From Candidatus Omnitrophota bacterium (GTDB taxonomy: Bacteria; Omnitrophota; Gorgyraeia; Zapsychrales; Fredricksoniimonadaceae): a DNA stretch of 39,875 nt. Shown in pieces: positions 26,096 through 39,875 of the stretch (the stretch's first letter is position 1; each line of letters opens with the position of its first letter). The notes beneath the pieces are model-generated. The model was not told the origin of the DNA and ran no database searches. It was given only the letters and a program-made list of their open reading frames with translations. The stretch covers positions 1 through 39,875 of the forward strand of contig JAHFGE010000004.1 of NCBI GenBank assembly GCA_023247575.1, read 5' to 3'. The translations under genes were made by a program, and so were the position numbers.

Positions 26096-29000
26096 CTGCG
26101 GTATTTCAGGTTTAACCGTCTCTTTGGCTGGAAAATATTTTTTCATGTCTGTGGTCAACATCATCGGACGGAAAATAACTAAAAGCTCCATTTTATTCTC
26201 TGGACCAGGGATCTTTTTCATTCCATACATAAGCACAACTCTTTCTCTGCTATTTAACGTTGCCGCCCGTAAAAAAACCCAGTCACCTTCGACGTATCCT
26301 TTCGATTCAAGATAACCCGTTGGGAAATATAAAATACGACTTTCAATATTCGCATCCAAACTGATCCCCAAACGAGGGTTGCCGCCGACATCTCTTTTAG
26401 AAAAAAGTTGTACCCTAACTCTCGCCCATTTAGGAGGCATTCGTTTACCTTTTAAGGCTTGCAACACATAATGCATCCGAAGCAAAACTAACTTTGGACC
26501 TTCCTTTGAAGGCAGATAAACCCCAACCGGGGCGTGACGTAAACAAACTTCCTGATCTGGGCTAATCATGGCATAAAAAGCAAGAGCCGTAGGTAAAAGA
26601 CGAAACCGTCGACCTTTTAATAAATAATCGTAAATTTCTTTTCCCCCTCTGATCTGCGGAATATAAAAAGCTGCCCGGCCAAATCTTTTTGTCATTCCCG
26701 GCGTCGCCTCAAAGGGGAAGGGACCATCATCCAGTGTCAGTCCCGACCCTCTTCTGTGATCGCCTTTGAAGATAAATCTCTCTACTTTATGGATGAGAAG
26801 AGGATCAAGTGGAGCTCGAAAATAGGTCCTTTTTGCTTGCGCTGGTGGCAATTGCCCCTGTACTCCATAGGCATGCTCGATCGCTGGGTAAATATCGACG
26901 GCTGGAATTCTTTTCTCTAATTCGAAGGCTGACAACAATTGTGACATATTTTCCGGTTTCATATATGAAAACCGTGGATCAATTGATTTTACTCTATCCC
27001 CCATTTCTTTGAGCGTCTTCCCTTGCCGCAAACGCCTCAACTTCATGAACGGCCCCCAGGACAAACGCTCCCGCGCCTCTAAATAGTTCATTCCTATTAA
27101 AAATCGGGAAGGTTCAATATCGAGAATGGAAGCAATATGTAGGATATCTCCTGGTCTGTATTTGCCATCGCTTTGACTTGCTAAAAGATTACGCCGATAG
27201 TCATAAATATCCTGATAACCTAACAGCCTTGCCATCTCCTGGTCAGAAATACCGCGGTCATTCGCAATCGCCTTTATTCTTGCCCCAAAAGGTATCGATG
27301 CCAGCTGATCTACCAGCTGTAAATCACTAAGCGGCCGCTCATTGAATTCGGCCAACAAGGCTTTGCCTTTGCGTTGTTCCCGGATGTTTACCGCCTCTGG
27401 TAATCCACCGCTGACCATGGCGATATTCATGTCGGGGAGAAAAGTCAGACGGAAAGTTTGTTTGGCGATGAAATCCAATGACCTCTGATCGTGCGGGTTG
27501 TCTGATCCATAACCGCCAACCCGCAAAAATATCGGCACCAGTGAAGACTCTCCGGCCGAATTCCCAGGGCCGAAAATAACCTCGGCCCATGGGTGTGTCA
27601 ATTCAGTTGGAACAACAATGGCATAATCGCCAATCTCTATTTCACGAGATGGGGAAATTGGCATCGCAAGTCTCGTCACCAGGATCTGATATCCTTTCAA
27701 ATAAGCCCAGCCCAAATCTTCTGTCAACCGTTTATGCGAAATTGTTGGAAAAAAGGAATCGATCGTTTGAATTGGTTTATAATCATTATCGACCATACGG
27801 ACGGTAGGGATAAATCCACACTGGCTCTCGCTTCCTTGAGCGCTATTGACTGTAAAATAATAAGGAAAGGCAAACTGATCAAAGGCCAGCGAAACTGTTC
27901 CCTTTTTGAATCGCTCGTCAAAAAAGAAATAAAACGACGAATGGAGTTCGGGTAGGGAAAAAGTTTCCAAAGCAAATAAAATTTCTGAAAGGACCTGATG
28001 GGCATAGGGAACAACGTATCCTTTAACCCAGAATAAACCACTATTTGCAAATCCTTCGATTTTTCTTATTTTAAATACTTTTGCTTTCCCCAAGACCCTA
28101 ATACTTTGGCCCTCCTGATTTGTTTGATAGGCAACCAGTAGATCCTCAGCCCTTTCTTTCCCAAGAAACTGAACACCCTCGATACCACCGCTTTGATCAA
28201 CATGCAATGAATACAGGGCGCCGCGATAACCCGGAAAACGCACATCAAACAAGGGACGGACAGTCAGCCTTTCCATTGAAGGAAGGATTGACTCGATCCG
28301 TTTGCTCTGTATAATCTCTGCCTTACGTAGCCCTTCCATGGTTTCAAAAACGACCGCCGCAATTCGTCCGTCTTTAATCACACTGTTGAGCCTTCGGTTG
28401 ACGTAAATCGACCCACCAAAACCGGAAGCCTCAACAGGAACCCAGAATCCCAAATCCGGGACAAAGCGCCATTCGATCCGGATATCTTTTAGACCACTTT
28501 GATTCGCAGCCCTGACCTTGAGGGCGTTGATGCCCTGCGGCAGTTCCGCAGCGAAGATTCTGTTAGAGAAATCATCATTTAATAAGGGCAAATACCCATC
28601 AATGATCCGATGCCTCCGGCTCCATTGCCCTTCGGATAATTCCTTAAAGGTATCTTCACGGTTTCCTGCCCATCTATCAGCAATATATTGGGCATAGTAG
28701 GAAGACCGCAGATTAAACCTACGGACAAACGCGTCATGGAAAACCACAGGCGAAACCTTTCGTAGAACCGCGTGAATCCGTTTCTTGTCATCACTGCGGC
28801 CAACGGAGTCTAGCGTCTCTAGGATCATCTCTGTCAAATGTCCTGCCGCCTCTTGATTCTCACCAAAACCCTCCTCTTTCCCAGCAATCATCACTTCCCA
28901 TGGCCTTTGGATTTCAAAAATACATTTTACCTCTAGACCCCGAGCCTTAATCTCATCAAGGTTCTCTATCTCCTGTTGGCTTAACATATGCCCCGTACGT

Positions 29001-32000
29001 AATCCCCCGGCGCCAGGTAGATCCCGTGGATCAAAACTTACTAGATCATTGTCATCAAAAGACGAGACCGGAATTCTATCCAGAATAAATCCAGCGTTAA
29101 TCCCTGCTTTGTATATATTTCTTCCCGCTACCCAGGCCTGGGCAACGGCAATTTCTTCTCCCTCATGGTGGATATAGATAGTGTCCCCTTCTTTCCTGGG
29201 GCTCATCTGGCTAAGCTTCTCCCAGAGAAGATCAACCATCTCACCCCGTCCTGTATCGCGCAGTTTTTTGCAGAAACAATTCACGTCGGATACTTGACGT
29301 AAAAATATTCCCAACGGCATCCCAACTGGCCTCCTTGCGGGAACCTTTACAACAGTAGGTACGGTCTGCGCCTTCTGTTTTCTTTTGAGTTCTTCCCTAC
29401 GTCCTTCTTCTCGTAATTTTTCAAATTTTTGTTTTAGTGCTGCATCAATCTCAAGTTCCTTTCCAACCGACCAACATGGACTCGGCTCATTCAACCTCCT
29501 GAAATAATTAATTTCAACGTAAAGACGCCAGCCTACTCTCAAAAGAACGTACCCTCCAGCGACGATTAAGAAAAACATCCTGTAAAAATCAAACATGACA
29601 TAAATGGCAGAGGCGATTACTGGAACCAATGGAGCTCTATTGGTTACCATCTCGACTTTCGTTAGAGGGCGGCTTGTGATATTCGCATTTGTATCAGCCC
29701 TGGCTATGTCGCCAGTCAATAGTATGAACCCGCAGGTTACAAGCGCAAGCGGGACAAGGAACAAAGGCAGTATGCGCCCAGTCCGGCCGGGCTTGCAAAT
29801 CGACGGCTTCCCACAAATCGACGGCTTCCCCTCATTGACAACTTCTAACTGAGGTGCTATAGTTTGATTAACTAAAAAAGAGGATTGCCTTACGGTGCGC
29901 AAAACAAAAAACAGACTCAAAATGAATATTAAAACCCCGAATGGTAAAAGATTTAATGCCGACAAGTGGCTTACGGAACATTTCGAAGAGCTTGTCAATA
30001 AATTTCCCGGCGAATATATAATTGTGGCTAATGGAAAAATATATCGTAAAGGCCCCCCCCGCCAATTGAGAGATAGGGCCTTAAAAGAAAATCCAGGTGC
30101 TGTTATTATGGGGCACCGAGTTCCCCGTCCAAAAGATTTTCTATGCGCGCTCATCGGGCAATAAAGTTCCCTTACAAAGCCTACAGGATGTTTCCCTGTC
30201 CCATAGTTCCTGTTCAATTGCAGGGACCTAAAGGTTGGTTTACTGCTGACGCCTATGTGGATAGCGGGGCTTTTTATTCTGTTTTCTGTATTCAAGATGC
30301 TGAAATGATCGGGCTTGACTACAAGTGCGGTCGACGAAGTAGCATCTGTGTCGGGGACGGAGATTCTATCCCTGTATATTTCCATACCCTCCCTGTAACC
30401 ATAGGAAATATTTCTCTCAACGCTATAATCGGATTCTCCGAAAAACTGAAAGTAGGATTTAATCTCCTCGGCCGCAGAAGCATATTCGAACGATTTGTGG
30501 TGATCTTTGATGACGTCAGACGCCAGATCACCTTTATCCCGCGCCGATGAATTAACTTTCTCTAAAACATCAGCCCTGGCTATGTCACCGGTCAATAGTA
30601 TGAACCCGCAGGTTACAAGCGCAAGCGGGACAAGGAGTAAAGGCAGTATGCGCCCTGAGGACGATTCGACGGGCGCTGGCACAGAGGTAGACGAATTAGG
30701 TGCTGTGTCCCCGGAATTCTGTACTTTTCCCCATTCATCAAAGATAGCAGGCGACACCTCTGCCATCATCGACGGCAAAATTGTGCAGGCCAAGACAACG
30801 AGCAGCACAGGAACCGTCCCTAAATGCGCCAGCCCCGCTGCCCCGCCGTTGGCGGGGGCAAGAAGCGGGGCCAGCGCAATACCAACACCCACCGCTGCCG
30901 CTGCACCTACAAGCGCAGTATTTACTATCCTTGCTGATTTGTAAACTGTACCGTTTGCTTGACGAGAAATGTCTTGAGTTCTCTGGAGGGTTAAATGCCC
31001 CCTCAATGCTTGACCCGCTGCCGTATATGATGTATGCTTTGAAATGAAAAGAGGACTTATAATGCTAAGAGTGAACCCCTTGACCCAGAGAGAAACCAAA
31101 GCGGTTAATGTATACAAAGCACTGTTGCTTAAAGCATTTCCAGGCCGTATCCAAAACTTTTTACTTTTTGGGTCCAAAGCCCGTCGAACGGCTGGTCGCT
31201 GGTCAGATATCGATCTTCTAGTTGTTCTTACAAAAAACGGCCGCAAGGCCCGCAAAGAAATCGCCGCGCTCACCCATGAGCCGATTGCCAAATACGGCGT
31301 TGAACTTTCCCCTGTCGTAGTGACCGCGTCCGAGATGAAGGAATGGTCGCCATTTATCGCCCACATCAAAAAAGAAGCAATTCCCATATGAACAAGAAGC
31401 AAGAATACGTAAACCTGCGCCTGAGACTGGCCAAAGAGAAATTGAAAGTGGCGGAGCTTTTGGCTAAAAGCGGCAGTTACCGCGACTCCATTTCCAGAGC
31501 CTATTATGCGATCTTTTATGCCGCAAAGGCCTTTTTGCTGTTTCACGGGCAGGACCCGACTTCTCACAAAGGTGTCAGCGTTCTTTTTCATAAATTCTGT
31601 GCCACGCACAAGCACCCTGACGCAAGTTTCGCCAAAATGCTTTCTGTTCTTCAAGAAGCACGTCAAGAAGCCGATTACAAAGAAAAAGTACGCCTTACGA
31701 AACGCGACGCCAAAGAAGCCGTCGCCTCTGCGAGAATTTTCCTTAAGGAAATCTACCGTCTCATTCGGGGCCACTAAAAGCCAAAGTTTCGCAATTCCCA
31801 GCGTCCTTACTGCCGTTGAGGCCATGACCTTCATTGTGCCCCACCCAAAGAAATGGCAGCCATCCAAGCCATTGCTTGCGGCGAGAGGCGCGGCGGCGGG
31901 TTGAGTCTTATCGTCACGTAATTTCTTCAAAGACTCCTGGAAATCACACAATACGGCAGCGGTGATTTTGTGCGATCGGCTGGATTCTATTTCCAAAAAT

Positions 32001-35000
32001 TGACTCATCGTGTTCTTGGCGCATTCTTCAACAACGTTACGGTATTCTTGCTTCAACTCAAGCGGGAAAAGAACAGTGATGGTTTTAATAACTGCTGCAT
32101 TAAGCCGACAGGCTGATTCGCCGGGATTTTTTGGTCTTAACATTTCGGCCATGGCCCGGGCAAAAGTTAACTTCCACTCGTTGGGGCACTCAGTCCACAA
32201 ACATTTCAATTGATCCAGAGCTTTCTCTGGTGTAATACGTCCAAACACCTTTTCTCCCCAAATGGCATCCGCTAAGGCAATCATTTGTTCTCCCAAACTG
32301 TTGCGAATATAGTCAGGAATTTGTCCCTCGCCTAAGATGACAGGGGCAGGTCCTTCAACGGCCCTTGCTTGAGGCAATGGCTGGTGCAGGACAGTCGCAT
32401 CGGCTACGGTCAAGGCAGGCATGGGAATTGACGGTGAAGACGCTGGCTTCGATGGAACGGATTTCTGCGGGAGACCAACAACATTGCGACCCATAATGTT
32501 AGAAAGGACGTCTCTTTCCCGGTGCTCAGGGATCAGGCCCGCTTCCCATCTATTTATCTTCCAAGTATACATTCTCAGGAATTGTGTAAAACCTGTGGGA
32601 TCACGGTCCTGCCAATGGCCCAAATATTGTTCACGTTCTTCTGCCGTCTTAAATGAACGAAGCACCGGCACATCAAAGACATCTCCCTCGATTAACAGTT
32701 TTAACGTCACAGTTTCCCATGTCGCGCAAAGCCTCTCTCGAACGAGTTTCAATGTTTTAGGATATTTCCCGGCATCCTGCCACGCCTGGGAAAATGTCAT
32801 TGCTCGCGTTATAATAACTGGGTCCACACCCAGGGCCCGTGCCAGGCAGAAAAGATTGTAAGGCAATGGGGCGCCGGCCTGCCACGCAAACCGCCCTTCA
32901 TTTTTAACGATGCCCCCTTGCTCTCTTTCCATATTAAAGTAACTTGTATATCCTATGTTGGCCTTCTTCAAGAATTCTCTGATGTCTTCATCAGGGCTCA
33001 CCCAAATCCTCAAAAATGCGATACGGTAACCGGTGGGTTTATCCTTAAGATGAACCAAGACTTCTTCCGGGAGAGCCAGTGTGCATGAAATCTCCCCATA
33101 ATGAGCCAGAGGTATAATAACTTTATCTTCCCACTGCACGTATGGTGTTTGCGGATTGATCCGCCCTTTAAATTCCTTAACTTTATCTTTAACTTCCTCA
33201 TAGGCAGCCATTCGTTCTCTATTAAGCCTCCCAATACGTTCCTGCCCGGCGGCTCTTTGGACAATGATGTTGCGGATTGCCTCTTCGTCTTCGAGAGCGG
33301 TTTCACCTGCTTTCCAGGCCTCTGCTTTGTCGGCTGTAAATCCTGATCCTAACAGCGCCTGTACACCTTGCGTCGAGAAACGTATGGAACCATCAAACCA
33401 ATAGGCCAAGAGGGCAGCGAGAATGTCTTTTCCAGGAGTTACCAGCCCCATCATGTTTTCTCGCTGATCATCTTCCATAAACGGATTAAGCCGACGGACG
33501 TCTATGCCGAGCATATGGGCCGCATCGGTTTGATTTCTATTTGCAGCAACAAGCGCCAGGGAATACGCACGCCAATGCAATTCTTCCAAAGACAACGTGG
33601 CCGGGTGCTCTGCTTTCAGAAAAATGCCGAATTGTTCTCCCAGAATTTTCCTTGCCCGTCCTGGATGACGTAATTCGGAATGCTCATGCAAAATAAACGC
33701 CAATGGTGTTAATGTTTTCTGGTACAATCCGCGCTCACTGACACCCAAGCGATCCCTCAATTCCTTTCTCACTCCTGCTCCCATTTCGGTGGCATCCTGT
33801 GACATGGCTGCAATCGTCGACAGAATTCCGATAAGTTCAATAAGTTCAACGAGAGTCGCCTCTTCTTTACCTGCACTTTCTTTTCGCAACCAGCTATAAA
33901 AAGACGGCCATATAAAGCCCGCGGGACCGGATAGGAGTGTTTGAACTTGTGTTGATTCACCTGATTCCTGTAAAAGGCGTACGGCCTGGGTTTGTTTTTT
34001 CTGCGCAGCACGGGTGTCCAAGCCGATGATGTTCTCTAAATAGCATGCCACCAAAGTCAGCGGCTGCGGGCTCCGTTTTTTGAGAACAGTATATTCGCCA
34101 AGGGCATCCAGCAAAAATTTGTGTCTTCGCTCAAGGTCGGTTGAGGCAAAGCCCCTGAGGGCCATGATCAACGTTTGCCACTCGAGGGTCTTTTTGGCTT
34201 CCTCCAGCGGCACATTCTTTTGCCGTTGATCCGATAACCATTTTAAAAAACGCTCCAATAGGGTACCGGTTGTTGGGAGAGGTTTAGGGATGACTTTCAA
34301 AGGAGCTGCTGGCAATTCGACAGTTATTTTTGCATCTAAAGGCGCAACGGCCTTAGTCGTTGGACCAATTGCTGTTGATTGAACTGGCGGGGCCAACGGG
34401 GCCACCCCCACTGCCGCTGGTTTCGTTTCCGTTAAACTTTTGGCCGCTGCTTCCGCCGCCGGTTGATCTTGACTGGCAGATGGCAAGGCTGGTCCAGTAA
34501 CTGGCGTTTCAGCACCAGTCTCAACCGGACCTTTCACAGGGCTACTGGTTATCCGAACCAATGTGGCCACCAGTTTGTCATAATGCAATCTGGCGTTTGA
34601 ACGGACGGAAAGGAACCTTTCTGGTGTTGAAAATTTGTACTGAGAATCAAACGTACCCAAAAGCCGAAAGACCTCCGCCAATTTCCCACGAATAACCTCC
34701 ACGGTAGTAGTGCCTAATTGAAAATTTAGAAAATCAAGTTCTGCATCTACCAGGCTAAGCGATGCCTCAAGAAGCATTCTAGGGCCTTCCTCTAACATAT
34801 CCATGTTACTGGATGCCTCTGTCAACAAATGTCTGACCCTTTCCCTCGCGGCATCGACTATTGTTCTTTCCCTTTGAAGTTCTTCTGCGGCCTGATGAAT
34901 AATCTCTCTGGCTCTGGTAAGATACCGGTTAAACTCGTTAAGATCGAATCTCTCCGGCCTAGATCTTTGTATAGAGGACCACGATGTTGTGCAAAGAAAG

Positions 35001-38000
35001 GCAAAGCCGGCGATGGCCGCAAGGAAAAGCCACGGGGACCCGGCTGCCAATGCCAATACAGCAAGGAAAAACACTACCGGCGAGCGAAGCTTGGTGAGAT
35101 CTATCGCCGGTTTTCCTTTATAGTTCAACTGTCCGTTTCTATTCGGAAGTTTTGCGGTTCTAGCCTTCAGCAATGCGCTCCATAGGCTATGACGGATAAC
35201 TTCAATGGTCAGCCGATGTTTTGCCCTTTGGCGACCGTGCGAGAATACAAGTCGTCCGTCAAGATAAACCTCTGTTTGAGCGCCCGGAGTTTTATAATCG
35301 TTCATGATTCTTCGAAAGAAATTTCTCAACAACCCATTGTAAGAAGCTGCAGGCGGAACAGAAAAATCATAACGGACCAAATCCGGCCGGTCTTTGAGGT
35401 TGTCCAGCACATGCTCCAGACTAGTGACCACACCGCGCGGGTTAAGCCACACTGCCTGCGCCGGCAGGACGGCCGTGAATTCCTGATGACCGCTGCGAAA
35501 TACAGCACGTGCTGTACCCATGATGGTTCGCCGCAGGCAATCCACTAAATCTCCACCGACGAAAAGGCCGGCCACTGGCAACGGCTTCGAGGGCGTAAAA
35601 TGTCCCCATTCGCTCTCGTGTGGCCTTAGTCTGAAACGACGCAGTGCGTCCGGATAAAACCACTGCCCATTGATCAAAATATAGCGGCGCTCGAGTGTGG
35701 GCCAAGCGAGCACTCCTTTATACTCGTCCATGAAGAGCTCATCTGGATGCGTTAGAACAAAAAAGTTTAGGGGTGTGCCCCTTAGCTTGAAATTCGACTG
35801 GACGACGGACGCCGATACTATACCGAGGAGGAAAAAGCCGGCGATGGCGAGAACAACAAGTAATGCAGGGACTATGCCATACGAAACAATCTTGTGGACC
35901 GTTACCCAAACCCGTTTCGAGGCCGCCGAAAGCGACTTCTTAAGGGACTGTTTGAGCATATACCGTCCCGTTTTACCGGGCAGCGCCAAAAGACCACTTG
36001 AGAGAAAACCAGCTTTCGGGAAGAACCGGAAGGCAATGGTAAGAATTTTCTTCGGCAAATATGTCAATACCAAAGCTAAAGCTATCGTTGTCCAGAAAAA
36101 TTCTTCGGTAATCTGCCCAAAAGAAGAACGCAGTTTAGGATGAACCGCTACCCACATCTCTTCAAATTCAAGTGCCTCAACAACCAGATGTCTTGCGAAC
36201 TTCTCGATCTTGCGTGACGGAATGCCGGACATGACTCCAAGACCCCAGATAATGGTCCGTGTCGTCTCAACGTAATGCTGAATACTGACGACCGGTCCCT
36301 TAAAAGGCGGCGGCGCAAGAAAAATGAATCCCTTATGAATGAAACCAGCAAGCCGTATGTTTTGTTCTTCAAGATGATCAAAAAACTTCTTGTCGCCGAC
36401 AATGATGATGTCGTTAGGCTCTATCCTCTCGAGCAAATTCCTATTTATTGGTTGAATTCGAGCCACGTTTTCCTCCATGTCATTCGGAAAATAATAGCGG
36501 ACATTTTCTAGATACCCTGCGCCGATGGGGCCAATTCTTAATGCCTCCTTCACACTATGCACCTGCCACAATGACAGCGATTTACCGTCGAGTGTCCGCC
36601 AGGCAAAGCGTTCTCGCTGAGAGCGATGAAACACCGCCGCCAACCAAGCCAAGCCGACCATGGTAAGGGCGCCGATAATCCACGGCGCCGCGATATGCAC
36701 AGCGGCCATAAGCCCGCCCCAGCCCGGCCCGTCAAAAACTGATCCAATTTTTGACAAGGTCTCGCCAAGACCGAAGGTCATGGCGGACACGTCGGGAAGC
36801 ATGAGGGCGAGGGACCATAGATTAAGGTATTGCAACGACGCGGGGAAAATAGATCCGATACTGCCAGTGATATGAATTCTGGCTTGACGTGATAATCGTT
36901 CTATACTACGATGGCTTTTGTGGAGAATGCCGTCAAACCAATCAACTTTAGCTCGCACGCCAAGGAACAATTTACCTACCGTGGAACAAACGAAAGCGAA
37001 ATAACTTCTGCGATCCGCAATTCGCGGTGGGAAAAGGCGGAACTCGGGCGCATGCAATGCAAGAAAGATCTTACCTACAATAAAGATTGGAACAATAAGT
37101 ACTACGCCACAAAACAAGTAAAGCCAATATTCATTGAGGAAAAAGATAGAATTGCAGTGATTACCGTTTACGTGTATTATTTCTAATAAGGAGGAAACAT
37201 GCGCATTACTTATGACCCAACTGTTGATGCCTTGTATATAAGATTCGAGGAAACTACCGTTACTACCAAGCACCTTTCCGAGGGCATAGCCGCTGACTAC
37301 GCCCCAGACGGCAGCCTTGCCGGCATCGAAATTCTGGACGCGGTAAGACGCTTTGGGGGAGACAAGACAACTCTCAAGAAGGTTACTCTTGAAGAAATAG
37401 GTTTGGCTGCTTAGGAAGACACCGACCAGTACAATCAAGGAAAGAATGTTTGTCAATATCCCTGGCGGGCCATGAAACAACGGGCCGAACCAGCCCGCCA
37501 CGTCGGGAAGCATGAGGGCGAGGGAAATGAAATTAAGACATGCTGTCCACCGAGCCATTGGACTGCTCTGAGCCGGCTCTTGAAGTCCGAACTCTTTAAG
37601 GAGATTCTCTTTATCAAAGGGCTGTTGACCCATACGCGCAAAATACTCGGCATTGTCGATGAAATTTTGTATGTCCTTGAATGGAAATGCCCTAAGTATT
37701 GAAAATCCCTGCGGTGTCAATAAGAGGACCTTAAAAAAGAATTGATACGTTCCCTCAACAGCTGCTTTAACTCCTTCGGCATTGAGACCAAGAATAATAT
37801 ATTTCAATAAATCTGCGGATAAATGAACATAAAAAGCATAGTAATCGGCATATTGAAGAGTCAGGGCTGATTCATGGACATGGCCGCGGCGCTGTTGACT
37901 AATATCTGGAGAATCCAAAGCCTTTTGATAGGCCCCTTCGATAGCTTCGCTTCCTCCCGGAACATAATCGGTCCTTCGGATTATGGCAAATATTTCGGCA

Positions 38001-39799
38001 AAAACCTCTTTTTGGTTCTCGTCACCAATCACGCCACGGATGGCTATTTGAAACTGCTCCTTGATCCCTCCAGCCAGCCTCTTTAAAACAAAATTAAAAT
38101 CTTCATGCGCCCCCTGTCCTTCCATGGGAAGATCAAGAATATAATGCAATTGCAAAATCGTCTGGGTGGCGTCGGCAGGTTTGCCTTTCCCTGGAGGCAG
38201 CTGACGCAAATGAAAATCATGCAGTAAAGCTGCTAAAAAGGCCGTGATCAAATCCCTTTTGGTTTTAATCAATCCGCGCCCGCGGGCTGTCTTTAAATTG
38301 CTCAAGGTCACAACGACATTATGCAGATGGCTATGAAAGAATTGCCACTCTAAGCCCATCTGTTGATACAAAGCGGCAATGATTTCGATAAGCTTTCTTG
38401 CGCTCTCCAGTTCACTGGGATTAAGATGGACGGGTAAACCATTATCGGGACCTAAAAATTTTAGAATCTCGTTGGTAAACTGACGGATGAGCGCCCTGAA
38501 CCGCCCCGCCGGATCTTCCGCAGAAGGAAATGCTGACTCCCATGCCTCACGGTCAAGGGGGCCATAGAGGACATTTACGAGATCCCTTTGGTCGTCTCTG
38601 TTGGCTGCCGGCAGAATAGTACCTCCAATATCACTACCTGCAAGCAGCACCAATCCGCTGATGATTGTCGCTACTAAAAACCCCAGCGCCCCGTGGCCGC
38701 TTAAAACATGCCCCAGCAACCCAACGCCAAAAACCACGAAGATCATCAAGCCAATCATCGGCCACATCCGTCGATTGACAAGGCTTAAGAAAAATGTTAT
38801 ATTTAAACCAAAAGGAATTTCTCTATGACTAAACTTTTGCAGGCTACTTACGAACACGGGCGACTGAAACCATCGTTGCCTCTCAATCTCCCTGAGCACC
38901 AGCGGGTCATTCTGGCGGTTGTGGTCACTGAAGACGACATCCCCGGCCTTCTGACTGCTAAACTGGCTGAAACGGGCAAAAGCTTCGACTTCCTCAACGA
39001 CCCTCGCGAAGACATTTACAATCTTTCTGACGGCAATGAACTCTAGCAAAAAATCTATTGAACGTGGCGATGTTGTGCTTATTCCTTTCCCTTTTACTGA
39101 CCTATCCAGTACCAAAGTACGCCCGGCCGTCATTATTTCCGCCAACCCACAGCAAAATGACCTTGTAGTCGCTTTTATCTCTTCTGTTTTAACCGATAAA
39201 CCCTCCAATAGCGATGTCGTCCTGGCCAGCAATGCTCCCAATTTTTCTGCGACCGGTCTTAAAAAAGATTCTGTTTTTAAAATGAACAAACTCGTCACGA
39301 TATCTTCAGCGCTAATTTTAAAACGGTTAGGCCACGTAGCCACCGCCTTCCAAAACCAATTAGACAATGCTCTTAAAAAAGCATTAAATTTATCATAAAA
39401 TACCTCTGCCATTGTTGCGGTCAAAGGAGCTGTAGGCGCCATGGCCGGGACAGGCGCCATACCGCTACGAACTGCGAACTGTGTACTATAAAGGCGGGCA
39501 CTATGTGGTGAGCTTGTCGAACCATTAAAGGTCCTGTGCATGGCAATGGCATCTTGCAGGGTGCCAGCATTCACCATATTCCATGCCGCTTCACGGATGG
39601 CCTGGCGCTTGTGCTTGGCCCCATACAAATGAAGCCACACAAAGATATGGATGGCCCAACGGCCTATAATCCCATAGGCCCAGCGTAAGATGGGGGTTTC
39701 AATCCCCGGGGCCCATTCCAATAAAATCCTGTCCGCCAAAGGCCGGGTGGAGGCAAACCGACCCAACAACCAGTACGCCATCCTGAAGGGCGGCAACAT
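25298..39799 (-). CDS. Giant 4,833-aa multi-TM, multi-module protein of unknown function
   Basis: 14,502 nt without a stop, in a genome where neighbouring genes use TAA, TAG and TGA. It has several hydrophobic TM clusters and HD-like, XRE-HTH-like and sigma-70-like segments. The first ATG is at 39799. The frame is also open for the last 25 codons to the window edge, which is not statistically informative. Confidence 0.7.
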   Translation of the reverse strand: MLPPFRMAYWLLGRFASTRPLADRILLEWAPGIETPILRWAYGIIGRWAIHIFVWLHLYGAKHKRQAIREAAWNMVNAGTLQDAIAMHRTFNGSTSSPHSARLYSTQFAVRSGMAPVPAMAPTAPLTATMAEVFYDKFNAFLRALSNWFWKAVATWPNRFKISAEDIVTSLFILKTESFLRPVAEKLGALLARTTSLLEGLSVKTEEIKATTRSFCCGLAEIMTAGRTLVLDRSVKGKGISTTSPRSIDFLLEFIAVRKIVNVFARVVEEVEAFARFSQFSSQKAGDVVFSDHNRQNDPLVLREIERQRWFQSPVFVSSLQKFSHREIPFGLNITFFLSLVNRRMWPMIGLMIFVVFGVGLLGHVLSGHGALGFLVATIISGLVLLAGSDIGGTILPAANRDDQRDLVNVLYGPLDREAWESAFPSAEDPAGRFRALIRQFTNEILKFLGPDNGLPVHLNPSELESARKLIEIIAALYQQMGLEWQFFHSHLHNVVVTLSNLKTARGRGLIKTKRDLITAFLAALLHDFHLRQLPPGKGKPADATQTILQLHYILDLPMEGQGAHEDFNFVLKRLAGGIKEQFQIAIRGVIGDENQKEVFAEIFAIIRRTDYVPGGSEAIEGAYQKALDSPDISQQRRGHVHESALTLQYADYYAFYVHLSADLLKYIILGLNAEGVKAAVEGTYQFFFKVLLLTPQGFSILRAFPFKDIQNFIDNAEYFARMGQQPFDKENLLKEFGLQEPAQSSPMARWTACLNFISLALMLPDVAGWFGPLFHGPPGILTNILSLIVLVGVFLSSQTYFFKSNLLESCLVSPKASYRVQNFDAGKAAVWGVVSGYALGKVLGSNGSFLESYIQGINSWVISNAHVSSLLEIIHVNGNHCNSIFFLNEYWLYLFCGVVLIVPIFIVGKIFLALHAPEFRLFPPRIADRRSYFAFVCSTVGKLFLGVRAKVDWFDGILHKSHRSIERLSRQARIHITGSIGSIFPASLQYLNLWSLALMLPDVSAMTFGLGETLSKIGSVFDGPGWGGLMAAVHIAAPWIIGALTMVGLAWLAAVFHRSQRERFAWRTLDGKSLSLWQVHSVKEALRIGPIGAGYLENVRYYFPNDMEENVARIQPINRNLLERIEPNDIIIVGDKKFFDHLEEQNIRLAGFIHKGFIFLAPPPFKGPVVSIQHYVETTRTIIWGLGVMSGIPSRKIEKFARHLVVEALEFEEMWVAVHPKLRSSFGQITEEFFWTTIALALVLTYLPKKILTIAFRFFPKAGFLSSGLLALPGKTGRYMLKQSLKKSLSAASKRVWVTVHKIVSYGIVPALLVVLAIAGFFLLGIVSASVVQSNFKLRGTPLNFFVLTHPDELFMDEYKGVLAWPTLERRYILINGQWFYPDALRRFRLRPHESEWGHFTPSKPLPVAGLFVGGDLVDCLRRTIMGTARAVFRSGHQEFTAVLPAQAVWLNPRGVVTSLEHVLDNLKDRPDLVRYDFSVPPAASYNGLLRNFFRRIMNDYKTPGAQTEVYLDGRLVFSHGRQRAKHRLTIEVIRHSLWSALLKARTAKLPNRNGQLNYKGKPAIDLTKLRSPVVFFLAVLALAAGSPWLFLAAIAGFAFLCTTSWSSIQRSRPERFDLNEFNRYLTRAREIIHQAAEELQRERTIVDAARERVRHLLTEASSNMDMLEEGPRMLLEASLSLVDAELDFLNFQLGTTTVEVIRGKLAEVFRLLGTFDSQYKFSTPERFLSVRSNARLHYDKLVATLVRITSSPVKGPVETGAETPVTGPALPSASQDQPAAEAAAKSLTETKPAAVGVAPLAPPVQSTAIGPTTKAVAPLDAKITVELPAAPLKVIPKPLPTTGTLLERFLKWLSDQRQKNVPLEEAKKTLEWQTLIMALRGFASTDLERRHKFLLDALGEYTVLKKRSPQPLTLVACYLENIIGLDTRAAQKKQTQAVRLLQESGESTQVQTLLSGPAGFIWPSFYSWLRKESAGKEEATLVELIELIGILSTIAAMSQDATEMGAGVRKELRDRLGVSERGLYQKTLTPLAFILHEHSELRHPGRARKILGEQFGIFLKAEHPATLSLEELHWRAYSLALVAANRNQTDAAHMLGIDVRRLNPFMEDDQRENMMGLVTPGKDILAALLAYWFDGSIRFSTQGVQALLGSGFTADKAEAWKAGETALEDEEAIRNIIVQRAAGQERIGRLNRERMAAYEEVKDKVKEFKGRINPQTPYVQWEDKVIIPLAHYGEISCTLALPEEVLVHLKDKPTGYRIAFLRIWVSPDEDIREFLKKANIGYTSYFNMEREQGGIVKNEGRFAWQAGAPLPYNLFCLARALGVDPVIITRAMTFSQAWQDAGKYPKTLKLVRERLCATWETVTLKLLIEGDVFDVPVLRSFKTAEEREQYLGHWQDRDPTGFTQFLRMYTWKINRWEAGLIPEHRERDVLSNIMGRNVVGLPQKSVPSKPASSPSIPMPALTVADATVLHQPLPQARAVEGPAPVILGEGQIPDYIRNSLGEQMIALADAIWGEKVFGRITPEKALDQLKCLWTECPNEWKLTFARAMAEMLRPKNPGESACRLNAAVIKTITVLFPLELKQEYRNVVEECAKNTMSQFLEIESSRSHKITAAVLCDFQESLKKLRDDKTQPAAAPLAASNGLDGCHFFGWGTMKVMASTAVRTLGIAKLWLLVAPNETVDFLKENSRRGDGFFGVAFRKAYFFFVIGFLTCFLKNRKHFGETCVRVLVRGTEFMKKNADTFVRSRVLPVKQQKGLCGIKDRIIGSGNGVAVTAAFSQKLRHFQFLFGQSQAQVYVFLLLVHMGIASFLMWAINGDHSFISDAVTTTGESSTPYLAIGSWVSAAISLRALRPFFVRTTRRSISDQRPAVRRALDPKSKKFWIRPGNALSNSALYTLTALVSLWVKGFTLSIISPLFISKHTSYTAAGQALRGHLTLQRTQDISRQANGTVYKSARIVNTALVGAAAAVGVGIALAPLLAPANGGAAGLAHLGTVPVLLVVLACTILPSMMAEVSPAIFDEWGKVQNSGDTAPNSSTSVPAPVESSSGRILPLLLVPLALVTCGFILLTGDIARADVLEKVNSSARDKGDLASDVIKDHHKSFEYASAAEEIKSYFQFFGESDYSVERNISYGYREGMEIYRDRISVPDTDATSSTALVVKPDHFSILNTENRIKSPAIHIGVSSKPTFRSLQLNRNYGTGKHPVGFVRELYCPMSAHRKSFGRGTRCPIITAPGFSFKALSLNWRGGPLRYIFPLATIIYSPGNLLTSSSKCSVSHLSALNLLPFGVLIFILSLFFVLRTVRQSSFLVNQTIAPQLEVVNEGKPSICGKPSICKPGRTGRILPLFLVPLALVTCGFILLTGDIARADTNANITSRPLTKVEMVTNRAPLVPVIASAIYVMFDFYRMFFLIVAGGYVLLRVGWRLYVEINYFRRLNEPSPCWSVGKELEIDAALKQKFEKLREEGRREELKRKQKAQTVPTVVKVPARRPVGMPLGIFLRQVSDVNCFCKKLRDTGRGEMVDLLWEKLSQMSPRKEGDTIYIHHEGEEIAVAQAWVAGRNIYKAGINAGFILDRIPVSSFDDNDLVSFDPRDLPGAGGLRTGHMLSQQEIENLDEIKARGLEVKCIFEIQRPWEVMIAGKEEGFGENQEAAGHLTEMILETLDSVGRSDDKKRIHAVLRKVSPVVFHDAFVRRFNLRSSYYAQYIADRWAGNREDTFKELSEGQWSRRHRIIDGYLPLLNDDFSNRIFAAELPQGINALKVRAANQSGLKDIRIEWRFVPDLGFWVPVEASGFGGSIYVNRRLNSVIKDGRIAAVVFETMEGLRKAEIIQSKRIESILPSMERLTVRPLFDVRFPGYRGALYSLHVDQSGGIEGVQFLGKERAEDLLVAYQTNQEGQSIRVLGKAKVFKIRKIEGFANSGLFWVKGYVVPYAHQVLSEILFALETFSLPELHSSFYFFFDERFKKGTVSLAFDQFAFPYYFTVNSAQGSESQCGFIPTVRMVDNDYKPIQTIDSFFPTISHKRLTEDLGWAYLKGYQILVTRLAMPISPSREIEIGDYAIVVPTELTHPWAEVIFGPGNSAGESSLVPIFLRVGGYGSDNPHDQRSLDFIAKQTFRLTFLPDMNIAMVSGGLPEAVNIREQRKGKALLAEFNERPLSDLQLVDQLASIPFGARIKAIANDRGISDQEMARLLGYQDIYDYRRNLLASQSDGKYRPGDILHIASILDIEPSRFLIGMNYLEARERLSWGPFMKLRRLRQGKTLKEMGDRVKSIDPRFSYMKPENMSQLLSAFELEKRIPAVDIYPAIEHAYGVQGQLPPAQAKRTYFRAPLDPLLIHKVERFIFKGDHRRGSGLTLDDGPFPFEATPGMTKRFGRAAFYIPQIRGGKEIYDYLLKGRRFRLLPTALAFYAMISPDQEVCLRHAPVGVYLPSKEGPKLVLLRMHYVLQALKGKRMPPKWARVRVQLFSKRDVGGNPRLGISLDANIESRILYFPTGYLESKGYVEGDWVFLRAATLNSRERVVLMYGMKKIPGPENKMELLVIFRPMMLTTDMKKYFPAKETVKPEIPQMPSADEQWRRQLAAAKELSDTQQLDCWKRIRHDSKAFSDLVLSFYPMIEEFVSRHSRSSDSHWADNLRATGCEIVIDQMLQYTPERGKTLREFVHEALKRHLKSETTRLLRSTGQINLQSPATGKDDELTWLDIIPAAEAYRRLGYEPNLPPGEDEEEDIDTDEGLGSPEEEAVAENQEIVDQGGEKVELPYEGGIEQLINDLAGYHVPRDIKIFEAWYDGSSVLQIIEQFEIDETEANRILEGLFDTVRKLVKAQGNGTSELPK
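26880..27290 (-). other. Two XRE-type helix-turn-helix-like segments inside the giant ORF
   Basis: RGISDQEMARLLGYQDIYDYRRNL and RLRQGKTLKEMGDRVKS...SQLLSAFELEKRIP. Confidence 0.4.
29693..29779. repeat. 87-bp direct repeat, copy 1 (flanks module A)
   Basis: 83/87 identical to 30569-30655. On the minus strand it encodes GRILPLFLVPLALVTCGFILLTGDIARAD. Confidence 0.95.
29796..29831. repeat. 18-bp tandem duplication (caaatcgacggcttccc[a/c] x2), encoding GKPSIC x2 in the giant frame
   Basis: Read directly. It abuts the module A -35 hexamer. Confidence 0.9.
29835..29863 (+). promoter_or_regulatory. Promoter TTGACA-N17-TATAGT for module A
   Basis: -35 at 29835-29840 and -10 at 29858-29863. GAGGA SD at 29880-29884, 10 nt before the GTG at 29895. 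Confidence 0.6.
29895..30164 (+). CDS. DUF5678-like small protein (module A, gene 1)
   Basis: WLTEHFEELVNKFPGEYIIVANGKIY follows the DUF5678 pattern. GTG start with SD (alternative ATG at 29922). Antisense to the giant ORF. Confidence 0.5.
   Translation: MRKTKNRLKMNIKTPNGKRFNADKWLTEHFEELVNKFPGEYIIVANGKIYRKGPPRQLRDRALKENPGAVIMGHRVPRPKDFLCALIGQ
30143..30550 (+). CDS. Retropepsin-like (clan AA) aspartyl protease (module A, gene 2)
   Basis: PIVPVQLQGPKGWFTADAYVDSGAFYSV has the DSGA catalytic motif in its usual context. Overlaps gene 1 by 22 nt. Confidence 0.6.
   Translation: MRAHRAIKFPYKAYRMFPCPIVPVQLQGPKGWFTADAYVDSGAFYSVFCIQDAEMIGLDYKCGRRSSICVGDGDSIPVYFHTLPVTIGNISLNAIIGFSEKLKVGFNLLGRRSIFERFVVIFDDVRRQITFIPRR
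30569..30655. repeat. 87-bp direct repeat, copy 2 (flanks module A)
   Basis: Offset from copy 1 is 876 bp (3 x 292). Encodes GRILPLLLVPLALVTCGFILLTGDIARAD. Confidence 0.95.
31010..31038 (+). promoter_or_regulatory. Promoter TTGACC-N17-TATGCT for module C
   Basis: -35 at 31010-31015 and -10 at 31033-31038. GAGGA SD at 31051-31055, 6 nt before the ATG at 31062. Confidence 0.5.
31062..31391 (+). CDS. MNT-type nucleotidyltransferase (antitoxin of HEPN/MNT pair)
   Basis: LLFGSKARRTAGRWSDIDLLVV is the canonical GSxxR...SDxD motif. I prefer the ATG at 31062 (SD, downstream of the promoter) over the track start at 31044. Confidence 0.88.
   Translation: MLRVNPLTQRETKAVNVYKALLLKAFPGRIQNFLLFGSKARRTAGRWSDIDLLVVLTKNGRKARKEIAALTHEPIAKYGVELSPVVVTASEMKEWSPFIAHIKKEAIPI
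31388..31777 (+). CDS. HEPN domain protein (toxin of HEPN/MNT pair)
   Basis: SRAYYAIFYAAKAFLLFHG...TSHKG and RQEADY HEPN motifs. ATGA overlap with the MNT stop. Confidence 0.88.
   Translation: MNKKQEYVNLRLRLAKEKLKVAELLAKSGSYRDSISRAYYAIFYAAKAFLLFHGQDPTSHKGVSVLFHKFCATHKHPDASFAKMLSVLQEARQEADYKEKVRLTKRDAKEAVASARIFLKEIYRLIRGH
34270..34555 (-). other. Pro/Ala/Thr-rich low-complexity linker in the giant ORF
   Basis: SSPVKGPVETGAETPVTGPALPSASQDQPAAEAAAKSLTETKPAAVGVAPLAPPVQ... Confidence 0.7.
36788..36814. repeat. 27-bp exact direct repeat, copy 1 (flanks module B)
   Basis: cacgtcgggaagcatgagggcgaggga, identical to 37499-37525. Encodes SLALMLPDV in the giant frame. Confidence 0.95.
36911..37186 (+). 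CDS. DUF4258-like protein (module B, toxin-like)
   Basis: INFSSHAKEQFTYRGTNESEITSAI ... IAVITVY follows the DUF4258 pattern. Confidence 0.55.
   Translation: MAFVENAVKPINFSSHAKEQFTYRGTNESEITSAIRNSRWEKAELGRMQCKKDLTYNKDWNNKYYATKQVKPIFIEEKDRIAVITVYVYYF
37199..37414 (+). CDS. DUF2283-like protein (module B, antitoxin-like)
   Basis: MRITYDPTVDALYIRF...DGSLAGIEILDA is the typical DUF2283 signature. Strong AAGGAGG SD at 37189-37195. Confidence 0.75.
   Translation: MRITYDPTVDALYIRFEETTVTTKHLSEGIAADYAPDGSLAGIEILDAVRRFGGDKTTLKKVTLEEIGLAA
37499..37525. repeat. 27-bp exact direct repeat, copy 2 (flanks module B)
   Basis: Offset from copy 1 is 711 bp (3 x 237). Weaker similarity continues for ~18 bp. 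Confidence 0.95.
37950..38420 (-). other. HD-phosphohydrolase-like region of the giant ORF
   Basis: HSHLHNV...(~35 aa)...AALLHDFH (HD dyad at 38216-38221) ... IIRRTDY has H..HD..D spacing. Confidence 0.35.
38775..38803 (+). promoter_or_regulatory. Promoter TTGACA-N17-TATATT for module D
   Basis: -35 at 38775-38780 and -10 at 38798-38803. AAGGA SD at 38812-38816, 8 nt before the ATG at 38825. Confidence 0.6.
38825..39046 (+). CDS. DUF104/AF2212-like antitoxin (module D)
   Basis: ATYEHGRLKPSLPLNLPEHQRVILAV matches the antitoxin fold signature. Overlaps the toxin gene by 11 nt. Confidence 0.6.
   Translation: MTKLLQATYEHGRLKPSLPLNLPEHQRVILAVVVTEDDIPGLLTAKLAETGKSFDFLNDPREDIYNLSDGNEL
39036..39398 (+). 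CDS. PemK/MazF-family toxin (module D)
   Basis: ERGDVVLIPFPFTDLSSTKVRPAVIIS is the canonical MazF N-terminal beta-strand signature. 120 aa. Confidence 0.85.
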   Translation: MNSSKKSIERGDVVLIPFPFTDLSSTKVRPAVIISANPQQNDLVVAFISSVLTDKPSNSDVVLASNAPNFSATGLKKDSVFKMNKLVTISSALILKRLGHVATAFQNQLDNALKKALNLS

Positions 39800-39841
39800 G
39801 CCTGCCCCGACCGCAGCGTCGGGGGCGGGCCCTGTAGATTT

Positions 39842-39869
39842 ATTATAGGGCGGCGACTTTGTTACCCAA
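39842..39869 (-). promoter_or_regulatory. Weak candidate promoter TTGGGT-N16-TATAAT upstream of the giant ORF ATG
   Basis: Minus-strand -35 at 39869-39864 and -10 at 39847-39842. Hairpin ccccgac-N6-gtcgggg at 39805-39824 lies between it and the ATG at 39799. Confidence 0.3.
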
Positions 39870-39875
39870 TCGAGC

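Follow-up and report, generated by a model that had tools for sequence, protein, structure and literature searches.

In this work, the question was how an exact 27-bp direct repeat comes to stand, in frame, on both sides of two small genes that lie antisense inside a giant open reading frame (ORF). The window, by which we mean the whole stretch of 39,875 nucleotides from a Candidatus Omnitrophota bacterium analysed here, holds these two genes, designated module B, within a minus-strand ORF of more than 14 kb. We hypothesize that toxin-antitoxin cassettes entered giant genes in antisense orientation, duplicating the target as they did so, and that selection keeps the host frame translatable across them; this explanation is probably correct. 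The parts of the locus are:

25298..39799, minus strand: giant host ORF, 4,833 codons from the first ATG
36788..36826: left repeat copy (C-terminal side in the giant frame), exact over 36788-36814, encoding LNLWSLALMLPDV
36815..37498, 684 nt: inter-repeat segment, in the giant frame aa 768-995, the antisense translation of the cassette
36867..36912, plus strand: two overlapping weak sigma-70-like promoter candidates upstream of the toxin ATG, 9/12 matches each
36911..37186, plus strand: toxin gene, DUF4258-like (BECR fold, RelE/ParE superfamily), 91 aa
37187..37198, plus strand: toxin-antitoxin spacer of 12 nt, with the Shine-Dalgarno sequence AAGGAGG before the antitoxin ATG
37199..37414, plus strand: antitoxin gene, DUF2283 (PF10049), 71 aa, in the same frame as the toxin
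37463..37500, plus strand: 8-bp stem tggcgggc/gcccgcca after the DUF2283 stop
37499..37537: right repeat copy (N-terminal side in the giant frame), exact over 37499-37525, encoding LNFISLALMLPDV

The host frame has no internal stop codon, and the remaining five frames over the same interval contain 167-292 stops each. It is still open at the window end, so its length is at least 4,833 codons, and its codon-usage score is above zero outside the modules. In a collinear second assembly (ENA contig ERZ27297570), the giant gene was called as 5,025 aa and is ended by the contig edge. The host taxon is supported by the MnmA protein of the window, which shares 70-81% identity with proteins that carry the name Candidatus Omnitrophica at NCBI. 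The whole giant product has no Pfam domain at E<=0.1, and neither a SecA DEAD-helicase nor a C39/S8 peptidase domain was matched, with the N-terminus lying beyond the window. Residues 452-737 have homologues within other predicted proteins of 2,800-7,500 aa. A word-indexed search with the whole product gave no orthologues, the C-terminal 1,433 aa had no match in GTDB genomes, aa 401-754 had none in JGI metagenomes, and look-up of the exact product returned no record. In an exhaustive profile-free search with aa 330-1330, the matches were confined to the antisense-module stretch and to domain-level relatives of aa 452-737, and the region just downstream of the repeat had none. In the collections searched, no empty-site allele, that is, a giant gene without the cassette, was found.

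Such a product could be read as a series of independent minus-strand genes interspersed with plus-strand modules, in which the frame is open from another cause and the repeat is unrelated to the host protein. The lack of a Pfam domain and of a full-length homologue for the 4,833-aa product fits this reading, and so does the hydrophobic, signal-peptide-like segment that comes after each module. However, it is very improbable, because a frame free of stops over 4,833 codons (and over at least 5,025 in the second assembly), like the 20-kb frames elsewhere, would be impossible without selection on it. Moreover, separate genes would each close with a stop codon, and a frame-specific avoidance of codons, as reported below, is sensible only if the giant frame is read.

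The antitoxin of module B matches DUF2283 (PF10049) with 57.8 bits (E=1.2e-15, cut-off 23). The match of the 91-aa toxin to DUF4258 (PF14076) is weak (E=0.008, 16.9 bits, under the 25-bit cut-off); the toxin has 19 clear homologues at 49-69% identity, and 16 of the 20 members of the toxin-family alignment match PF14076 (best E=3.6e-6). DUF4258 is a BECR-fold toxin family with its activity listed as unknown (PMC11980606). The same toxin-DUF2283 pair is also present in L001, L003 and dozens more loci; the ordinary pairs are intergenic, and the pairing is conserved across many phyla. An exact look-up of the antitoxin gave no record since nested genes are not called, and NCBIfam provided no useful names for the nested ORFs. 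Within 36815..37498, the coding score is about zero in the giant frame and positive in the plus frame. The toxin and antitoxin genes run antisense to the giant frame in register with its codons, and TTA, CTA and TCA are absent from both; the giant frame is thus open across module B. The antisense translation of this segment matches stretches in the giant predicted proteins P0020, P0023, P0024, P0048, P0054, P0082 and P0086, and includes peptides unique to it, e.g., those spanning SLALMLPDVAGWFGPLFHGPPGILTNILSLIVLVGVF and NLWSLALMLPDVSAMTFGLGE.

The toxin gene is without a Shine-Dalgarno sequence. The sequence-only reading had found no properly spaced promoter, and our scan agrees with it in that there are only two weak candidates, GTGATA-18-GATAAT at 36867-36896 and TTGACG-17-TACGAT at 36884-36912. 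Two such sites were found versus 1.2 expected from shuffles, so their number is not above chance. The same reading had pointed to the stem after the DUF2283 stop; the stem is present, but its significance was not borne out, and it was rejected as a terminator with folding no better than that of shuffles (z=+1.29) and no T-run after the stem.

The 27-mer itself, CACGTCGGGAAGCATGAGGGCGAGGGA, has exactly two occurrences in the window (36788-36814 and 37499-37525), even with up to three mismatches allowed, and its chance expectation was 0 in 100 shuffles. The copies are spaced by 711 = 3 x 237 nt, and both encode L-N-x-x-SLALMLPDV in the giant frame (giant aa 755-767 and 992-1004). The exact in-frame repeat claimed earlier for module B was therefore verified in both coordinates, spacing and reading. 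The weaker similarity claimed beyond the 27-mer was seen as well and extends the repeat to 39 nt at 87% identity (36788-36826 and 37499-37537). On the other hand, the suggestion that SLALMLPDV-type segments are a repeated unit acting as a hotspot does not hold in this window. The motif is not periodic, occurring only twice in the 4,833-aa giant protein, both times as a flank of module B, and a k-mer scan found no long internal peptide repeats in the protein besides those flanking modules.

Module B is one of five modules in the giant ORF, the other four being:

29693..30655: module A, with plus-strand ORFs at 29895..30164 and 30143..30550
31044..31777, plus strand: nested MNT (NTP_transf_2) and HEPN pair, antisense in the giant frame
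34976..35848: third bracketed stretch, with plus-strand ORFs of no family match
38825..39398, plus strand: nested AF2212-like and PemK/MazF pair, antisense in the giant frame

About one quarter of the giant ORF is antisense toxin-antitoxin cassette, and within every module it is the plus frame, not the giant frame, that carries the coding signal. A direct repeat of 87 nt at 95% identity (4 mismatches, spacing 876 = 3x292) flanks module A (29895-30550) on both sides, and a 42-nt repeat of 71% identity (15 nt exact, spacing 831 = 3x277) flanks the stretch at 34976-35848. No bracketing repeat was detected at the MNT/HEPN or the AF2212/PemK pair, i.e., at two of the five window modules. The proposal that module B repeats the architecture of module A as a recurrent pattern is thus upheld by two more bracketed stretches in the window and by 12 of 13 nested copies elsewhere. 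Homologous antisense stretches exist for two of the other modules: that of module A lies within the giant ORF of L093, and that of MNT/HEPN shares its open frame with a DUF4258 module in L081. The giant protein has 20 strongly hydrophobic 19-residue windows (Kyte-Doolittle), all of them within or adjoining modules.

An exact 27-mer is near the k-mer sizes used by assemblers, so the repeat and the nested module could be an assembly artefact, for instance a chimeric join across a shared k-mer. This is extremely improbable, because the imperfect similarity continues past the exact 27 nt and the longer repeat of module A contains mismatches. In addition, the nested architecture is found in at least 19 independent contigs from differing projects and assemblers, and an artefact would not yield frame-specific codon avoidance.

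By comparing module carriers across genomes, the antisense frame of the toxin was found to be open over 2.7-20 kb in 13 GTDB genomes, in most cases as far as the retrieved sequence reached on both sides. These are all of the Omnitrophota MAGs carrying the module (8/8) and five genomes labelled Planctomycetia/Planctomycetales. Module carriers in other phyla had no such long open antisense frame. The frame is also open across six whole metagenome contigs, and in public gene calls the antisense translation sits within proteins of 2,000-6,800 aa; P0023 represents the entire L084, and P0024 matches L092. The host ORFs are mutually unrelated outside the module, and the DNA homology between modules ends at the two ORFs. 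Among 140 other antisense ORFs in these giant ORFs, Pfam matches at E<=1e-5 were solely to PIN, HicA/HicB, DUF433/DUF5615, CopG antitoxin and UPF0150. In many nested copies, a hydrophobic stretch directly precedes the antisense antitoxin on its N-terminal side. In the literature searched by term, no account was found of toxin-antitoxin modules nested or lying antisense within giant genes.

Exact bracketing repeats of at least 12 nt were present at 12 of the 13 nested modules, compared with 6.3% of 1,515 control positions, which were random positions within the same giant ORFs; for repeats of at least 17 nt, the corresponding values were 10 of 13 and 3.0%. The spacing of the best bracketing repeat was a multiple of three in all ten loci measured. 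The bracketing sequence is host coding sequence and is distinct in every genome. The duplications measure 10-30 aa at the peptide level and 12-87 bp in DNA, with about 420 bp in L090, and are variable from site to site. We infer insertion with target duplication from this anatomy, since neither an empty site nor an orthologue of the giant protein was found, and the repeat around module B would then be a target duplication made at insertion.

The brackets could also have been there before the cassettes, as paralogous repeat or linker units between which cassettes land or are shifted by homologous or unequal recombination; such host repeats would be recombination hotspots, the alternative raised in the sequence-only reading. 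Multi-copy linker repeats (SSSPVE) do coincide with the brackets in some other genomes: the 18-21-nt TCCACCGGCGAGCTGGAG has 4, 4 and 2 copies in contigs L018, L038 and L081, respectively, and also bounds segments that are not toxin-antitoxin, always at spacings that are multiples of three. L085 has at least three copies of its 67-nt unit, ASSPA and RSEVR/RSEMR motifs flank modules in differing giant proteins, and in L090 the module is bracketed by paralogous flanks of about 140 aa. Furthermore, the position of the module with a 150-aa flank, relative to the homologous host region, differs between L090 and L104. For multi-copy linker brackets, insertion between existing repeats fits as well as duplication at insertion. 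As a general explanation it is nevertheless unlikely. Each bracket of the window has exactly two copies, and the 4,833 aa contain no other long peptide repeat. Comparable repeats occur at only 3-6% of random positions in the same giant ORFs, so insertion between them would need an extreme preference for rare sites. Lastly, the repeat sequences are unrelated from genome to genome.

In 14 nested modules, both genes contain zero TTA, CTA and TCA codons, the complements of stops. In the host ORFs at the same loci, TTA and CTA together make up 13-57% of Leu codons and TCA 6-25% of Ser codons. The probability of zero such codons ranges from 1e-4 to 0.13 per locus, and the summed log10 is -33 with the loci treated as independent despite their shared ancestry. 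Of the antisense frames of the module, the two not aligned with the host contain 12-22 stops, and the median in the codon-aligned antisense frame of 49 ordinary homologous modules is 5. Toxin and antitoxin share one frame in 11 of these 49 ordinary modules versus all 18 nested or module-open copies. In L084 and L104 the toxin is a pseudogene, and the giant frame is nonetheless open for 20 kb and 10.7 kb, respectively, which argues for selection on the host frame and not on the toxin-antitoxin genes. Third-position identity at 4-fold sites is 0.32-0.35 among nested copies against 0.27-0.28 expected. Synonymous divergence is thus near saturation, meaning that the open frame has long been kept by selection. 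The giant frame is presumably translated across the cassette, to judge solely from its lack of stops, and the selective force may be the avoidance of truncation and polarity of the giant gene.

It might be argued that the antisense translation has a function of its own in the giant protein and is under selection there, for example as a membrane-embedded hairpin or a spacer, i.e., true dual coding. The location of all 20 hydrophobic windows in or beside modules and a synonymous identity of nested copies slightly over expectation (0.35 vs. 0.27) would fit. Stand-alone copies on the low-GC contigs L001, L009, L014, L060 and L127, in which the antisense frame is open over the module length only, point the same way. 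We regard this as quite improbable, because with synonymous sites so close to saturation the antisense peptide is barely constrained beyond the avoidance of stops. Identity is about 60-70% between the sense proteins and drops to 30-45% between the corresponding antisense peptides, and unrelated toxin-antitoxin families fill the same kind of position.

According to the preferred explanation, insertion with target duplication, module B would be a type II toxin-antitoxin cassette inserted antisense into an Omnitrophota giant gene. The insertion would have duplicated about 27-39 bp of host coding sequence, leaving an in-frame direct repeat on both flanks, and the added length of 711 nt would be divisible by three. 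The cassette would be transparent to the host, having both genes in one frame, codon-aligned with the host and without the stop-complement codons TTA, CTA and TCA. Ribosomes on the giant mRNA would then read through it without termination, adding about 237 residues of largely unconstrained peptide. As for its role, the cassette may be a selfish element in a tolerated niche, or an addiction module killing cells that have lost parts of the deletion-prone giant gene, an option modelled on the role proposed for toxin-antitoxin cassettes in chromosomal integron arrays. More tentatively, and with some doubt, we propose a distinct class of cassettes in Omnitrophota, and possibly related lineages, adapted to giant genes by being antisense, codon-aligned and purged of stop complements, with a long duplication that makes precise in-frame excision possible. 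Several unrelated families would have converged on this form, and the density of cassettes would reflect the policing of deletion-prone genes by the killing of deletion mutants.

Three kinds of known elements were considered and rejected. A transposon, insertion sequence or MITE does not fit, as there are no terminal inverted repeats at the insert ends and no transposase, the insert holding only the two toxin-antitoxin genes, and the duplications of 12-87 nt, of a different length at every site, are much longer and more variable than the fixed 2-15 bp of such elements. An integron gene cassette does not fit either. Homology between modules ends at the ORFs, the module flanks are unrelated and show no conserved cassette ends or attC-like sites, and no integrase was found among the window ORFs scanned. 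A self-splicing element (group I/II intron or intein) was rejected because no Rfam family reached the gathering score in 25000-39875 and the giant product had no intein/Hint match in Pfam.

Rickettsia palindromic elements and other MITEs are inserted in frame in ORFs and are short, palindromic and non-coding. Module B resembles them as mobile DNA in an ORF that leaves the frame intact and is presumably translated as a tolerated extra peptide. It differs in its 0.7-kb size, two functional-looking genes on the opposite strand, long variable duplications and the absence of inverted repeats. Superintegrons carry toxin-antitoxin cassettes with their own promoters, whose proposed role is the killing of cells that lose parts of the array. 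The giant ORF shares with them several unrelated toxin-antitoxin families scattered along one long deletion-prone array, but it has no integrase, attC-like site or shared flank sequence, and its array is a single reading frame. With ordinary DUF4258/DUF2283 type II modules of the RelE/ParE superfamily, module B shares two small co-directional genes 12 nt apart and a strong Shine-Dalgarno sequence for the antitoxin. Ordinary members are intergenic, with each antisense frame interrupted by several stops, whereas the nested clade lies inside an opposite-strand giant ORF, in one frame and with no codon that would stop the host.

The giant genes of Omnitrophota have been described as multi-kilobase stop-free ORFs with many hydrophobic segments and long domain-free stretches (West-Roberts et al., 10.1101/2023.11.21.568195; 10.64898/2026.06.07.730766), with examples of more than 30,000 aa (10.1101/2023.11.21.568195). 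Most of the full-length giants were reported with divergent SecA DEAD-helicase and/or C39/S8 peptidase domains. The window ORF is like them in taxon, stop-free length, hydrophobic segments and domain-free stretches, although at about 15 kb it is small and no SecA-like or peptidase domain was detected in it. A search of these two papers by term gave no mention of antisense or nested genes in giant ORFs.

Gene callers report the giant ORF only, and whole sets of Omnitrophota toxin-antitoxin genes are therefore missing from annotation. Some of the giant-protein sequence under analysis, with apparent transmembrane segments in it, is other genes read in reverse. Under the more tentative proposal of a distinct cassette class, the "unannotated, transmembrane-rich" portions of giant proteins already published would in part be antisense toxin-antitoxin DNA. 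The giant-gene papers left open whether these enormous frames are really read end to end, and the evidence from codon avoidance that they would be is indirect but strong. Duplications that are long, variable and in frame suggest a mode of insertion or recombination matching no known type of element. Selfish or stabilising modules would here share a locus with a host gene in a novel manner that needs no splicing, and the arrangement gives a testable idea of how bacteria keep genes of 15-250 kb intact. Moreover, it would provide a natural case of one DNA strand constraining the other, in which zero stop-complement codons persist through near-saturating synonymous divergence. The slight excess of synonymous identity in nested copies leaves room for a weak constraint on the antisense peptide.

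In the window, the DUF4258-like toxin and DUF2283 antitoxin genes of module B lie on the plus strand, antisense within a giant minus-strand ORF. The best-supported account is that such toxin-antitoxin cassettes would have been inserted antisense into giant genes, that the insertion probably duplicated host coding sequence, and that the cassettes were kept in a form through which the giant frame may be translated.

Giant host ORF and the antisense stretches within it
25298..39799, minus strand: giant host ORF, 4,833 codons, 0 internal stops
29895-30550 (29693-30655 including brackets), plus strand: module A, an antisense two-gene module with weak DUF5678 and Asp-protease matches; bracketing repeat 87 nt at 95% identity, spacing 876
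31044-31777, plus strand: MNT and HEPN; no bracketing repeat detected
34976-35848, plus strand: ORFs without family match; bracketing repeat 42 nt at 71% identity, spacing 831
36911-37414, plus strand: module B, DUF4258-like and DUF2283; bracketing repeat 27 nt exact, 39 nt at 87%, spacing 711
36911..37186, plus strand: DUF4258-like toxin gene of module B, 91 aa, weak DUF4258 match
37199..37414, plus strand: DUF2283 antitoxin gene of module B, 71 aa, DUF2283 match E=1e-15
38825-39398, plus strand: AF2212-like and PemK/MazF; no bracketing repeat detected

The other five frames of 25298..39799 contain 167-292 stops each, and the giant frame runs without a stop from its first ATG to the window end (39799-39875). 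Another assembly, ENA ERZ27297570, is a 39,308-nt contig collinear with positions 1068 to ~40375 in window coordinates. This contig ends within the giant gene, which is called there at 5,025 residues; the frame therefore continues without a stop for at least 500 nt past the window end. Thus, the true start lies outside the window and the gene exceeds 15 kb. That the repeat and the nested module are an artefact of assembly is hardly credible. No Pfam domain was found in the whole giant product at E≤0.1, and no full-length relative in the sequence collections searched; its aa 452-737 resemble stretches within other predicted proteins of 2,800-7,500 aa. By eye, aa ~4150-4833 (25298-27400) would hold two XRE-type helix-turn-helix segments, followed by sigma-70-like regions 2 and 4. 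The remaining window is ordinary bacterial chromosome (TatC, biotin genes, AccA, RlmN, MnmA). The MnmA encoded there shares 70-81% identity with proteins named Candidatus Omnitrophica, which places the organism in Omnitrophota, a phylum known for giant genes (10.1101/2023.11.21.568195). The host ORF is a member of a known giant-gene class, as module B is of a known toxin-antitoxin family.

When codon usage was scored with the window's housekeeping genes as training set, the giant frame scored positive throughout, save for five stretches in which plus-strand frames dominate. A chain of separate genes instead of one translated ORF is very improbable. Four of the five stretches hold recognisable toxin-antitoxin pairs, and the antisense modules together with the bracketed stretch lacking a family match occupy about a quarter of the giant ORF. 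No toxin-antitoxin family was matched among the ORFs scanned in 25 kb of housekeeping sequence from the window.

The repeat around module B was reproduced as the sequence-only reading had described it: the exact 27-mer CACGTCGGGAAGCATGAGGGCGAGGGA occurs at 36788-36814 and 37499-37525, the copies are offset by 711 nt (3 x 237), and both are read as L-N-x-x-SLALMLPDV in the giant frame. The similarity extends to 39 nt with 87% identity, and no third copy of the 27-mer exists in the window with up to three mismatches allowed, none being expected by chance. The claim that module A has the same architecture also holds, with in-frame direct repeats around an antisense two-gene module in both cases (spacings 876 and 711). 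In the giant frame, a tandem GKPSIC-GKPSIC duplication (~29810-29845, giant aa 3324-3335) is found immediately N-terminal of the left-hand repeat copy of module A. The module B toxin has 19 clear homologues, and PF14076 is matched by 16 of the 20 members of the family alignment. AAGGAGG precedes the antitoxin gene, and sequence inspection found no Shine-Dalgarno sequence at the toxin gene. As reported earlier, module B has no convincing promoter: the two promoter-like sites just upstream of the toxin ATG do not exceed chance expectation. The stem at 37463-37500 is present, although shuffled sequence folds at least as well and a T-run is lacking.

Toxin homologues in ordinary genomes are paired with DUF2283 in a normal stand-alone module. 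The openness of the toxin's codon-aligned antisense frame was measured in 80 metagenome and 80 GTDB loci, and in most of them this frame meets a stop after a few hundred bases at most. The supposed recurrence was nevertheless borne out, since the frame is open for 2.7-20 kb in 13 GTDB loci, in general as far as the fetched DNA reaches in both directions, and over the entire contig in six metagenome contigs. The 13 loci comprise all eight MAGs labelled Omnitrophota and five labelled Planctomycetia/Planctomycetales; no long-open antisense frame was found in other phyla among the GTDB loci fetched. Moreover, 140 further ORFs antisense within the giant ORFs of 12 loci were scanned against Pfam (E≤1e-5), and the only families were PIN, HicA/HicB, DUF433/DUF5615, CopG antitoxin and UPF0150, all of them toxin-antitoxin. 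Contig L081 has modules of both DUF4258 and HEPN/MNT type within one open frame, and locus L093 has a homologue of module A.

Bracketing likewise recurs in the nested loci, where the module lies antisense inside a long open host frame. Of 13 modules, 12 are flanked by exact repeats of 12 nt or more and 10 by repeats of 17 nt or more; among 1,515 mock positions taken from the same host ORFs, the figures are 6.3% and 3.0%. The best exact flanking repeat is 12-67 nt long, its spacing is a multiple of three in all ten nested loci checked, and its sequence differs from genome to genome; peptide-level duplications are often longer (10-30 aa, and ~140 aa in locus L090). Homology between modules is confined to the two ORFs (≤76% nucleotide identity), and the module B insert contains no recombinase. 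The host ORFs outside the modules are mutually unrelated, so the cassettes have moved between different giant genes. Pre-existing host repeats might instead have served as hotspots, with the brackets not made at insertion, and the earlier reading had raised SLALMLPDV-type segments as such a unit. This idea fails in the window, where each bracketing peptide occurs exactly twice and the giant protein has no other long internal peptide repeat, which argues for target duplication at insertion. It gains ground in some other contigs: the brackets in L018, L038 and L081 are copies of a multi-copy in-frame linker, TCCACCGGCGAGCTGGAG, and the bracketing unit of L085 is present in at least three copies. 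Recombination between pre-existing repeats is thus a live alternative at some sites; overall, we consider hotspots rather unlikely.

In these three groundwater contigs, TCCACCGGCGAGCTGGAG (SSSPVE) is an 18-21-nt DNA motif dividing the long open frame in-frame (L018: 203-220, 593-610, 1274-1291; L038: 26-45, 671-690, 1079-1098, 1709-1728; L081: 818-838, 1331-1351), with spacings that are always multiples of 3. It borders antisense toxin-antitoxin modules and, judging from the translation, a putative sense-oriented GNAT-like segment. The related peptide motifs ASSPA and RSEVR/RSEMR lie beside modules in the predicted giant proteins P0020, P0048 and P0086. The homologous giant ORFs of L090 (host aa 613-1090) and L104 (host aa 3113-3432) are 67% identical over ~750 aa, and this shared region has the module with a ~150-aa flank on one side in L090 and on the other in L104. 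The L090 module sits between paralogous flanks of ~140 aa. This arrangement suggests that larger module-containing segments were duplicated or moved within giant genes.

In the reading that we prefer, inserted cassettes would be kept open on the host strand. The codon starts of toxin, antitoxin and giant frame are all congruent to 2 mod 3, so the host frame is the codon-for-codon reverse complement of both module B genes, and it stays open when these avoid TTA, CTA and TCA. Module B genes contain none of the three, which make up 4.2% of all codons in the window housekeeping genes; the other two antisense frames of module B have 12 and 15 stops. The same codons are absent from both genes of 14 nested modules, while the surrounding host ORFs encode 13-57% of their leucines with TTA or CTA and 6-25% of their serines with TCA. 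The probability of such absence is 1e-4 to 0.13 per nested locus (summed log10 = -33). In the 49 ordinary homologous modules the median number of antisense stops is five, and toxin and antitoxin share one frame in 11 of them compared with 18 of 18 nested or module-open copies. Between nested copies, identity at third positions of four-fold codons is 0.32-0.35 versus 0.27-0.28 expected, nearly randomised; it follows that the copies diverged long ago and that the absence of stops is maintained, not inherited. The nested toxin has one in-frame stop in L084 (9915-10190) and two in L104 (487-750), with the antitoxin apparently intact, and the giant frame is open for 20 kb and 10.7 kb despite the broken toxin, so selection acts on the host frame and not only on the toxin-antitoxin genes. 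The near-random four-fold sites also leave the antisense peptide at most weakly constrained. That this peptide is itself functional is improbable; the hint in its favour is the placement of the hydrophobic segments of the giant protein, every one of which is in or beside a module. Its strongly hydrophobic 19-residue windows (20 of 20 in or directly beside antisense modules) fall at giant aa 348-388, 774-803, 895-913, 1030-1048, 1239-1257, 1309-1327, 1568-1596, 1981-1999, 2698-3069 and 3282-3412, and hardly any occur in the long stretches that separate modules. Reverse reading of toxin-antitoxin cassettes or their flanks may have produced some of the 'transmembrane regions' reported for giant proteins.

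The combination of antisense nesting, a common frame, purged stop-complement codons, long variable in-frame flanking duplications and phylum-wide recurrence looks new. Term searches found no description of such an architecture in the Omnitrophota giant-gene papers (10.1101/2023.11.21.568195; 10.64898/2026.06.07.730766) or in the wider literature searched. The architecture comes closest to in-frame selfish insertions, such as Rickettsia palindromic elements, and to the toxin-antitoxin cassettes of superintegrons. The defining features of three known element types are lacking: the module B insert has no terminal inverted repeats, unlike a transposon; inter-module homology ends at the two ORFs, unlike that of integron cassettes; and no Rfam family was found that would indicate a self-splicing element. 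The cassettes could be selfish occupants of a tolerant niche or, by analogy, addiction modules guarding a long deletion-prone gene. Toxin-antitoxin cassettes of chromosomal integrons have been proposed as addiction modules protecting the long deletion-prone array. Low-GC copies of the module in L001 (9986-10525), L009/L012, L014, L060 and L127 lie outside any long ORF, with both genes in one frame and the antisense frame open exactly over the module (~530-640 nt). These copies may have left the nested state recently or be what remains of it.
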